A DNA stretch of 62,576 bases, filler included, from Rhabdomonas costata (GCA_019059605.1; 42 parts of 42 records of this genome joined end to end with filler, not necessarily neighbours in it); one strand, 5' to 3'. Positions 32,538-34,225 are shown, numbered from the whole stretch's first letter. Made by a program: numbers and translations. Notes: generated from the letters alone by a model not told the origin.

Positions 32538-32658
32538 GTTGGCAGCAGGGTTTTGCGAGAAAGGGTAGTGTCAAGTTTGACCTGGGGCATGATAATGAGC
32601 GAGTTCTATGTGCTCAAAGAATAACTGGCATTACTTTAGAATTGTACCCACGGCCAGG

Positions 32659-32732
32659 AACCCTAACCCTAACCCTAACCCTAACCCTAACCCCAACCCC
32701 AACCCTAACCCTAACCCTAACCCCAAACCCCC
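32659..32732 (+). repeat. Telomere-type (CCCTAA)n tract with CCCCAA variants
   Basis: About 12 hexamer units at the contig 3' end. The C-rich strand points outward, the wrong polarity for a true chromosome end. Confidence 0.9.
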
Positions 32733-32832: not shown

Positions 32833-34225
32833 GGCTCCTCGGGATCCCGGGTCTACATTTACACCTGGAAAGCCCGCACGGCGAACACCATTCCCGACGT
32901 CGTCGCCGCACCGCCGGACCAAGCCGCTTGGTCGCTGAAGATCAAGCCCGGGATTTCGACCTTTGCCACCGCATCCATCGACGCTGCCGCCGTGGAAAAG
33001 TACCTCAAGCCCCTGATCGACTACGCAGTTTCGAAGATCCCTGCTGACCAGCAGAGCTCCACGCCCATCTACCTTCTTGCTACGGCGGGAATGCGTGGGG
33101 TGAATCCGGCGTATGCAGAAAAGCTGTACGCGGTGGTGCGCAACTACTTGGCCACCACCCCGTTTGTGTTCACACCCATATGGGCCAGAACTCTCTCTGG
33201 TGATGAGGAAGGCACCTACGGTTGGGATACCATCAACATGCTTCGCAGAACGTTGACACTTCCTCCGGGAGAGTCGTGGGCGGCCTTTGACATGGGTGGG
33301 GCCTCTACGCAGATAACCTTTGTGCCCTCGGAGGTTCCTCTCTCGGAGCACTTTGAGCAATGGGTTGCGAATTACACCTTTCAGTTGTACACACACAGTT
33401 ACTACGACTTTGGTCAAGACCGGTTTTTGGGGAAAATTCTTGCGTCTTTGGTCGCGGCAAAGGCCACCAGCAACCCATGCGGCCTTCGAGGCTACAACAA
33501 CACCTCCGGTAAGACTGTGCTTCCCGGGGCCTACGATGCCGTGGCCTGCAAGGCTGCAATTCGACCGTTGCTGGGACTGAAGCAGTTTTGCCCCCTGCAG
33601 CCCTGTGCACTCTGGAGCGAATACCAAGCTCACGTCCCGGACAACATGAAGCTGTGGCTCTTCTCTGCCTTTGCCTACAATGCTGAGTTTTTCGGCTGTA
33701 GTGGGGATCATCCGCTGAACTGTGTCGACAATGCGGCAGTGCCGTGGTGCACGACGAACACCCTAAGCACGGCCCAAGCTCAGCATCCTGGCTCTGCGGA
33801 TTGGTATCTTGCCACCTATTGCGGCTCAGCGGCATATTTCCACCTCCTGTTGACGGAAGCCTACGGGTTAAGCCCGCAACGTATTGGTCGATTTCTCGCG
33901 TATGTCGACACGACCGAGATTACTTGGGGTATGGGCGCGATGATGGCGATGCAGGGAGCCTACTATTGTCCCAGCTGCTCTGCCGCAGCCCTCACGTCCT
34001 CCACTGCAGCGGAGAGCACTACTCTCGCGCGGACAAAGGTCGCTATTGACATCCAGCACCTTGCTACGCCCGACCCTTATGCCATTATCATTGACGCCGG
34101 CTCCTCGGGATCCCGGGTCTACATTTACACCTGGAAAGCCCGCACGGCGAACACCATTCCCGACGTCGTCGCCGCACCGCCGGACCAAGCCGCTTGGTCG
34201 CTGAAGATCAAGCCCGGGATTTCGA
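32833..34225 (+). CDS. GDA1/CD39 family apyrase (NTPDase), in-frame tandem domains; no start, stop or intron in the contig
   Basis: The frame is open from 32833 to 34225. All apyrase conserved regions are present: (DA)GSSGSR, ATAGMR, LSGDEEGTYGW, DMGGASTQ and TWGMGAM. A linker then leads to a second IIIDAGSSGSRVYIYTW...KIKPGIS. Confidence 0.95.
34099..34225 (+). repeat. Exact 127-nt direct repeat of the contig start (32833-32959); repeat unit 1266 bp
   Basis: Both contig ends carry identical sequence. The offset of 1266 nt equals 422 codons. Confidence 0.95.

Follow-up and report, generated by a model that had tools for sequence, protein, structure and literature searches.

A self-overlapping contig of Rhabdomonas costata that probably represents collapsed, in-frame tandem units of a GDA1/CD39 apyrase gene

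We describe here a contig from the draft genome of Rhabdomonas costata (GCA_019059605.1) in which a complete apyrase domain of the GDA1/CD39 family runs in frame through a linker and into the beginning of a second copy of itself. The contig lies within a stretch of 62,576 nucleotides (nt), hereafter the window, that consists of 42 separate contigs of 1384-1396 nt each, sorted by length and set apart by N/TTAATTAATTAA spacers. The feature in question spans exactly one of these (positions 32833-34225; 1393 nt; GC content 58.1%). We consider it likely that this contig is the collapsed form of near-identical tandem GDA1/CD39 units, joined in frame within a single euglenid nuclear gene for a multi-domain ecto-NTPDase. 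The repeat, its open frame, the intact motifs of the domain, the tandem layout of an independent metagenome contig, the signature of purifying selection and the existence of multi-domain relatives are all observed directly.

The repeat unit, its encoded domain and its closure

The contig begins and ends with the same 127 nt (100% identity), identity is lost when 128 nt are compared, and the repeat unit is 1266 nt, or 422 codons, in length.

32833..34225, + strand: whole contig, made up of the 1266-nt unit and 127 nt of the next; frame 1 open throughout (464 codons, translation P0001)
32833..32959, + strand: terminal duplicate, copy 1, 127 nt, GSSGSR...KPGIS, from the second half of apyrase conserved region 1 (ACR1) onward
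34099..34225, + strand: terminal duplicate, copy 2, 127 nt, 100% identical to copy 1

A full unit contains no stop codon in frame 1 and between 3 and 22 in each of the remaining five frames. In that one frame the domain passes into the linker and on into the ACR1 of the next unit without a stop codon or a hydrophobic stretch, and 52 residues of the next unit are visible before the contig ends. An earlier, sequence-only reading of this DNA had described this arrangement of a complete domain reading stop-free into the next ACR1, together with the text of the linker, the restart at PDPYAIIIDAGSSG, the identical 127-nt ends and the 1266-bp, 422-codon unit, and all of these were reproduced. Its statement that a signal peptide is lacking also held, as no 19-residue window of the unit rises above a Kyte-Doolittle mean of 1.0, and the unit is therefore without a signal peptide or membrane segment. 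The first methionine of the unit is residue 87, and no in-frame ATG lies ahead of ACR1. Because of this late methionine and the missing signal peptide, single units cannot be translated separately, and we ruled out separate translation of each unit; with no unit able to start translation alone, read-through and splicing of the linker would both lead to a multi-domain product.

By every test that we ran, the unit is assigned to the GDA1/CD39 family. The translation matches the Pfam profile GDA1_CD39 (PF01150) with E = 2.4e-68 (231.2 bits; cut-off 24.9) over residues 1-373 and profile positions 17-410 of 423, and among PDB entries it matches 19 distinct sequences, rat NTPDase1 most strongly (3zx3; phmmer E = 1.8e-35). 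The match to 3zx3 includes a second alignment, of residues 415-441 with the N-terminal strand of that structure. All five motifs that we take to be the apyrase conserved regions are present (DAGSSGSR, ATAGMR, GDEEG, DMGGAS and TWGMGAM), and several of their residues, S2 among them, fall on invariant columns of a 60-sequence alignment.

32833..33951, + strand: GDA1/CD39 domain body, residues 1-373 (Pfam, PDB matches, AlphaFold2)
33079..33096, + strand: ATAGMR, conserved region 2; T84, G86 and R88 invariant in the alignment
33199..33213, + strand: GDEEG, conserved region 3; E126 invariant
33289..33306, + strand: DMGGAS, conserved region 4; G155 and G156 invariant
33922..33942, + strand: TWGMGAM, conserved region 5; W365 and G368 nearly invariant

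An AlphaFold2 model built with the same alignment as input has a mean predicted local distance difference test score (pLDDT) of 88.6 and a predicted template modelling score of 0.82. Block-mean pLDDT exceeds 90 from residue 11 to about residue 370, the first block scores 84, and linker residues 394-412 fall below 50, such that the model shows a folded apyrase domain with a disordered tether behind it. The unit holds 10 cysteines, all from residue 216 onward, six of which occupy invariant or nearly invariant columns. A cysteine-rich C-terminal lobe is typical of those family members that reside in the secretory pathway or outside the cell.

The way in which the contig closes on itself is informative about the assembly. 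SPAdes uses k-mers of up to 127 nt, and it prints cycles of the assembly graph with an overlap of length k. The terminal overlap of the contig is exactly 127 nt, the typical maximum k of a de Bruijn assembly, as expected of a graph cycle at k = 127, and it does not show that the molecule is a circle. The closure is most probably such a cycle, and what it does show is that unit tail and unit head are connected in the reads. Only this one of the 42 contigs in the window overlaps itself by at least 21 nt, so closure is not a general property of the assembly. A tblastn search of the 42 contigs with 12 apyrase proteins found no second apyrase piece and no entry or exit edge. An isolated cycle would form more easily if coverage of the linker edge equalled that of the unit, as with many copies, or if the flanks were missed by amplification. 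According to the genome report, the R. costata draft was assembled with SPAdes 3.7.0 from MiSeq 250-nt and HiSeq 100-nt reads of WGA4-amplified DNA, and it is very fragmented, with an N50 of 1194 (PMC8219788).

An independent tandem unit and two-domain relatives

A scan of public metagenome contigs found a single relative, L001 (1407 nt), which covers the whole 464-residue query at 86% amino-acid identity. The opening 149 nt of L001 recur 1258 nt further on with mismatches at 2 of the 149 positions, one within the codon at 98-100 (TGA) versus 1356-1358 (TGG) and the other at 114 versus 1372. Both differences lie no more than 114 nt from an end of the contig, and an assembly error is therefore possible. 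Because the overlapping copies are non-identical, L001 is explained better by separate tandem copies than by a monomeric circle or an amplification chimera. Since the same tail-to-head junction recurs in another organism and another data set, we conclude from the two sequences that the head-to-tail junction is real. This shared layout supports the sequence-only proposal of a collapsed tandem array of near-identical apyrase units in one frame.

Comparison of the R. costata unit with L001 gave a ratio of non-synonymous to synonymous substitution rates (dN/dS) of 0.058 over 291 ungapped codons (dS 1.40) and of 0.077 over 102 C-terminal codons, with dS of 1.4-1.8 in the two comparisons. Ratios of 0.06-0.08 indicate that the product of the unit is a selected protein and that purifying selection on it has been strong in each of the two lineages. 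Introns are absent from L001, as from the R. costata unit, and given a dS of about 1.4 the intron-less tandem unit is old, which speaks against the suggestion, made from the sequence alone, of a recent retro-copy.

The database proteins most similar in length to the query would, taken alone, wrongly suggest that tandem forms do not occur: the 120 matches listed in that search held only single-domain relatives with at most 40% identity, the best of which came from Entosiphon sulcatum, Peranema trichophorum and Mantamonas, each with an N-terminal hydrophobic signal. Among the 120 matches listed in a search of longer proteins, P0123 (786 bits), P0124 (596) and P0125 (362) ranked highest, the next best scoring 120, and each of the three contains two Pfam GDA1_CD39 stretches and duplicated motifs. 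A search of representative sequences added P0245 (Entosiphon sulcatum, 1052 aa) and P0243 (metagenome, 812 aa), giving five two-domain proteins, namely two Entosiphon transcripts (P0245 and P0124, the latter being EP01012_P005852, a complete transcriptome open reading frame (ORF) of 894 aa) and three unnamed environmental sequences (P0123, P0125 and P0243). A search for multi-GDA1_CD39 proteins in other protists had been put forward as a check on the sequence-only reading, and such proteins do exist, in Entosiphon and in unnamed environmental eukaryotes.

All five of these proteins are collinear through the R. costata junction in single tblastn matches. P0123 is the closest, with 48-51% identity and a linker of 9 residues between CPAC and PDPY. 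Strong hydrophobic segments (Kyte-Doolittle of at least 1.9) occur only at the ends of the chains, at both termini in P0124 and P0125 and at the C-terminus in P0123; no linker contains a hydrophobic segment, P0243 has none anywhere and P0245 has a weak one (1.66) inside its first domain. The two domains within each protein are 30-62% identical to one another. Those of P0124 are 61.5% identical overall and share a run of 46 identical residues, which suggests gene conversion between them. The phosphate-binding motifs of P0245 look degenerate in both domains (IQAGSAKSS and VDVGSETR versus DAGSSGTR), and by its sequence this protein may be a pseudo-enzyme.

We placed the unit in a quick maximum-likelihood tree of 46 rows, comprising 7 domain slices and P0002-P0040 (39 of the 120 listed matches of similar length), with the Shimodaira-Hasegawa-like approximate likelihood ratio test (SH-aLRT) as the sole measure of support. 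The unit falls in a 7-row clade (SH-aLRT 98) with Entosiphon, Peranema and both domains of P0123, and is sister to domain B of P0123 (91). The two domains of P0124 are sisters (99), as are those of P0125 (91). The contig also has the GC content of the R. costata transcriptome (58%), the genome report giving 51% for the genome versus 58% for the transcriptome (PMC8219788). The nearest named relatives being euglenids, and the GC content agreeing, the non-host source raised by the sequence-only reading finds no favour here.

The linker and competing explanations

The junction between units is made up of a short C-terminal extension of the domain, a linker and the beginning of the next unit.

33952..33978, + strand: C-terminal extension QGAYYCPSC (compare QGAYFCPTC in L001, QSSFYCPAC and QGQFYCRPC in P0123)
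33979..34068, + strand: linker of 30 codons, SAAALTSSTAAESTTLARTKVAIDIQHLAT, rich in Ser/Thr/Ala and of low model confidence; barely alignable with the 82-nt linker of L001
34069..34225, + strand: start of the next unit, PDPYAIIIDAGSSGSR..., with the PDPY motif common to the inter-domain junctions of P0123 and L001
34093-34116, + strand: DAGSSGSR, ACR1 of the next unit

The motif Q..[FY]YCPxC...PDPY[GA][IL][IV]IDAGSSG is common to the junctions of the R. costata contig, P0123 and L001. The junction reads ...QSSFYCPACRAYARPSPGPDPYGLVIDAGSSG in P0123, ...QGAYYCPSC-30 residues-PDPYAIIIDAGSSG in R. costata and ...PDPYGIIIDAGSSG in L001. The difference of 8 nt in unit length between R. costata and L001 lies wholly within the linker (90 nt versus 82 nt). 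The +1 frame of the R. costata linker (LPQPSRPP...) resembles both the in-frame linker of L001 (LPSPGPSPGP...) and RPSPGP of P0123.

Several observations weigh against a chain of domains read in a single frame. The junction of L001 is out of frame, its upstream domain ending in ...CPTCLPSPGPSPGPQQRYL followed by a stop codon, and the next domain lies in another frame, the unit of 1258 nt being 3n+1. A 1-nt insertion or deletion directly after the CPxC codon shifts the reading of the linker between R. costata and L001. The DNA identity of the two linkers, gaps included, is 55%, the same as the identity at third codon positions (55%), and on this comparison the linker evolves almost neutrally. 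A 30-codon frame happens to be open in 25-45% of random sequences with a similar composition, and when this is combined with the one-in-three chance of a 3n unit, read-through in the R. costata contig taken alone amounts to only about 10-fold evidence. The first copy in L001 carries TGA at a conserved tryptophan codon that is TGG in the second copy, and this could reflect either a decaying edge copy or an error at the contig end. Furthermore, the two-domain relatives were found as ORFs, and this biases their ascertainment toward in-frame cases. Among 1.84 billion representative proteins there was none with more than 80% identity to the unit (the best being 80% over a 148-residue fragment), none that spans the junction at more than 50% identity, and none derived from a transcript of this gene.

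A search of short proteins directed at the junction region yielded 1 match among 48 candidates (P0365, 69% identity), which ends 12 residues past GAMVA and does not span the junction. P0365 and P0247/P0355-P0357 are environmental sequences, 64-80% identical to the unit, that each contain one matching block and then turn to unrelated sequence at about residues 36, 164 and 372. Such fragments are exon-like, and they indicate that some close relatives have introns at places where R. costata and L001 have none.

These observations can be brought together in another way, in which the tandem array is real and the linker is a small intron or spacer, with the result that a shorter, spliced linker is translated or that the units are expressed otherwise. 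We regard this as rather unlikely. The stop codon and +1 offset of L001, a linker that evolves like silent sites and with insertions and deletions, the much shorter linker of P0123 and the introns indicated for the gene family by P0247 and P0365 all speak in its favour, and L001 has three GT..AG candidates (46, 61 and 70 nt, all ending at position 480) that would restore its frame. The R. costata contig does not offer the same solution, however, as the homologous GT gives introns of 43 or 61 nt, both of which break the frame, and the sole candidate that keeps it (33968-34009, 42 nt) would delete the conserved CPSC. A linker intron shared by both sequences was rejected on this basis, the 46-nt candidate restoring the frame of L001 and the 43- and 61-nt candidates breaking that of R. 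costata, although an intron in L001 alone is possible. The R. costata frame is, moreover, open across a 3n unit, and separate expression of the units is countered by the absence of an ATG before ACR1, the first methionine at residue 87 and the lack of a signal peptide.

That the contig is a 1266-bp extrachromosomal circular DNA with an endless reading frame, as the sequence-only reading had allowed, is very improbable. Its ends are identical and the cycle has neither entry nor exit among the window data, and euglenids carry extrachromosomal circular ribosomal DNA, according to one report (PMC9082867). The length of the overlap is nevertheless that of the assembler's k-mer, and a contig that closes on itself by exactly k should be taken as a graph cycle and not as evidence of a circle. 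The ends of L001 differ at 2 of 149 positions, which requires at least two distinct copies there, and its 1258-nt unit, which is not a multiple of three and contains stops, shows that an endless frame is not conserved. A circle would also lack a start codon and signal peptide, despite 10 cysteines per unit and relatives that belong to the secretory pathway.

We give similarly little weight to an artefact in which whole-genome amplification or mis-assembly fused the tail of a single-domain gene to the head of the same gene. The source DNA was amplified and the assembly is very fragmented, on the account given in the genome report (PMC8219788), and many contig ends in the window carry G/T-rich or C/A-rich, primer-like tails. 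Set against this, the same junction and flanking motifs are found again in L001, whose data set is unrelated, and the inter-domain junction of P0123 matches as well. Template switching would also lack a driver, there being no homology between tail and head. Each k-mer of a de Bruijn contig, here each 127-mer, must in addition be present in the reads. Lastly, a tandem satellite that descends from an apyrase retro-copy and is now decaying and without function would account for an intron-free unit in an intron-rich genome, for the nonsense codon and frameshifted linker of L001 and for the absence of a matching transcript-derived protein among the 1.84 billion representatives, but is most improbable given that 393 codons yield a dN/dS of 0.06-0.08, with dS above 1, and that the R. 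costata unit has no defect and retains every conserved motif.

With regard to the contig ends themselves, 11 of the 42 contigs have 5' ends with at least 90% G/T over 14 nt and 19 have 3' ends with at least 90% C/A. Degenerate primers used in whole-genome amplification probably left these tails behind. The contig at 32833-34225 has neither kind of end. The neighbouring contig (31349-32732) ends in telomere-type CCCTAA/CCCCAA repeats (32657-32732), and may be a chromosome end.

The proposed protein and its relation to known apyrases

The explanation that we favour is therefore a euglenid nuclear gene with at least two near-identical apyrase/NTPDase units arranged head to tail and in frame. The entry edge, with a start codon and signal peptide, and the exit edge, with a stop codon and a membrane or lipid anchor, would lie on contigs outside the window or be unassembled. 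Translation through the linkers would give a secretory-pathway chain of several intact, predicted apyrase ectodomains on flexible Ser/Thr/Ala-rich linkers, presumably led by a signal peptide and anchored at its C-terminus by analogy with P0123, P0124 and P0125. As judged by its motifs, such a protein is predicted to hydrolyse nucleoside tri- and diphosphates to monophosphates outside the cell or in the secretory lumen, and a plausible role would be the scavenging of nucleotides and phosphate in an osmotroph. Unequal crossing-over or gene conversion may keep the units alike within a genome while they diverge between species. Table S8 of the genome report, in which apyrase transcripts RCo000981, RCo000983, RCo024154 and RCo050483 appear, assigns to the predicted mitochondrial proteome four R. 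costata transcripts annotated K01510 (apyrase) and one annotated K01511, a placement that rests solely on the enrichment of a Euglena gracilis orthologue in a mitochondrial fraction (PMC8219788). This placement is doubtful because the family has signal peptides and disulfide-rich ectodomains.

A more far-reaching form of this explanation, which we put forward tentatively and consider doubtful as it stands, is a poly-apyrase organised like polyubiquitin. It would comprise more than two nucleotide-identical, intron-free, in-frame units within one giant gene, maintained by concerted evolution in the lineages of both R. costata and L001, with a single signal peptide, and its product would be either a multi-catalytic ecto-enzyme or a precursor that is cleaved. 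No linker or cleavage site is conserved between R. costata and L001, the two linkers being 90 and 82 nt long, 55% identical and read in different frames, with a stop codon in that of L001.

The R. costata unit resembles the linker-joined two-domain apyrases of euglenids and other protists, a small group that is as yet undescribed, and differs from them in having nucleotide-identical units. As far as our searches show, the members of this group (P0124, P0123, P0125, P0243 and P0245) are uncharacterised and unnamed. Like the R. costata contig, they have two PF01150 domains per ORF, joined by linkers of 15-45 residues without a hydrophobic stretch; they are collinear with it over the junction and belong to the same clade, and P0123 shares the YCPxC...PDPY motif. 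In contrast, their two domains are only 30-62% identical, whereas the R. costata units are nucleotide-identical as assembled, and their linkers are shorter than that of R. costata. Their chains have a visible start, stop and anchors, whereas the R. costata contig shows none of these, so its copy number may exceed two.

The unit shares its family, all of the conserved regions and a cysteine-rich C-terminal lobe with rat NTPDase1 (3zx3), NTPDase2 (3cj1) and bacterial and plant apyrases. These solved NTPDases and apyrases have one catalytic domain per chain, placed between two membrane helices or after a signal peptide, whereas the R. costata unit has no cysteine in its N-terminal lobe and runs into another domain. 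To our knowledge, no NTPDase yet studied has more than one catalytic domain in its chain. The sequence-only reading had said as much of characterised NTPDases, and we found nothing contrary in the literature; uncharacterised two-domain proteins do exist in the databases. We found no description of tandem GDA1/CD39 proteins in the literature, most subscription journals lying outside the search. A predicted protein of 1697 aa from Strigamia maritima (P0250) likewise holds several GDA1/CD39 domains in one chain, but it differs in that each of its three ENTPD units keeps its own flanking membrane helices; it is therefore probably a set of three tandem genes merged by the gene predictor and not a linker-joined protein.

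Polyproteins built from head-to-tail, in-frame units that are near-identical within a genome include the light-harvesting complex (LHC), RbcS and form II RuBisCO polyproteins of Euglena and dinoflagellates, as well as polyubiquitin. Their units are small, plastid-targeted or cytosolic, and are separated by short, conserved and cleavable linkers. The R. costata array would be similar to LHC and RbcS polyproteins and polyubiquitin in its identical head-to-tail, in-frame units and in the single start and stop that this arrangement implies. It differs from the LHC and RbcS polyproteins in that its unit is a 380-residue secretory enzyme, its host is without a plastid and its linker is not conserved with that of L001.

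Ecto-nucleotidases are central to the turnover and scavenging of extracellular nucleotides, and a chain with at least two intact domains joined by flexible linkers would represent a new architecture among them. The nucleotide identity of the units further implies that they are still being homogenised. A long array translated into a single chain would extend the polyprotein habit of euglenids, so far one of plastid proteins, to an enzyme of the secretory pathway in a host that lacks a plastid, and would also illustrate cleanly how a protein-coding repeat evolves in concert. Should the poly-apyrase prove to be genuine, it would be the first case of a secretory enzyme made as a polyprotein in a euglenid without a plastid.

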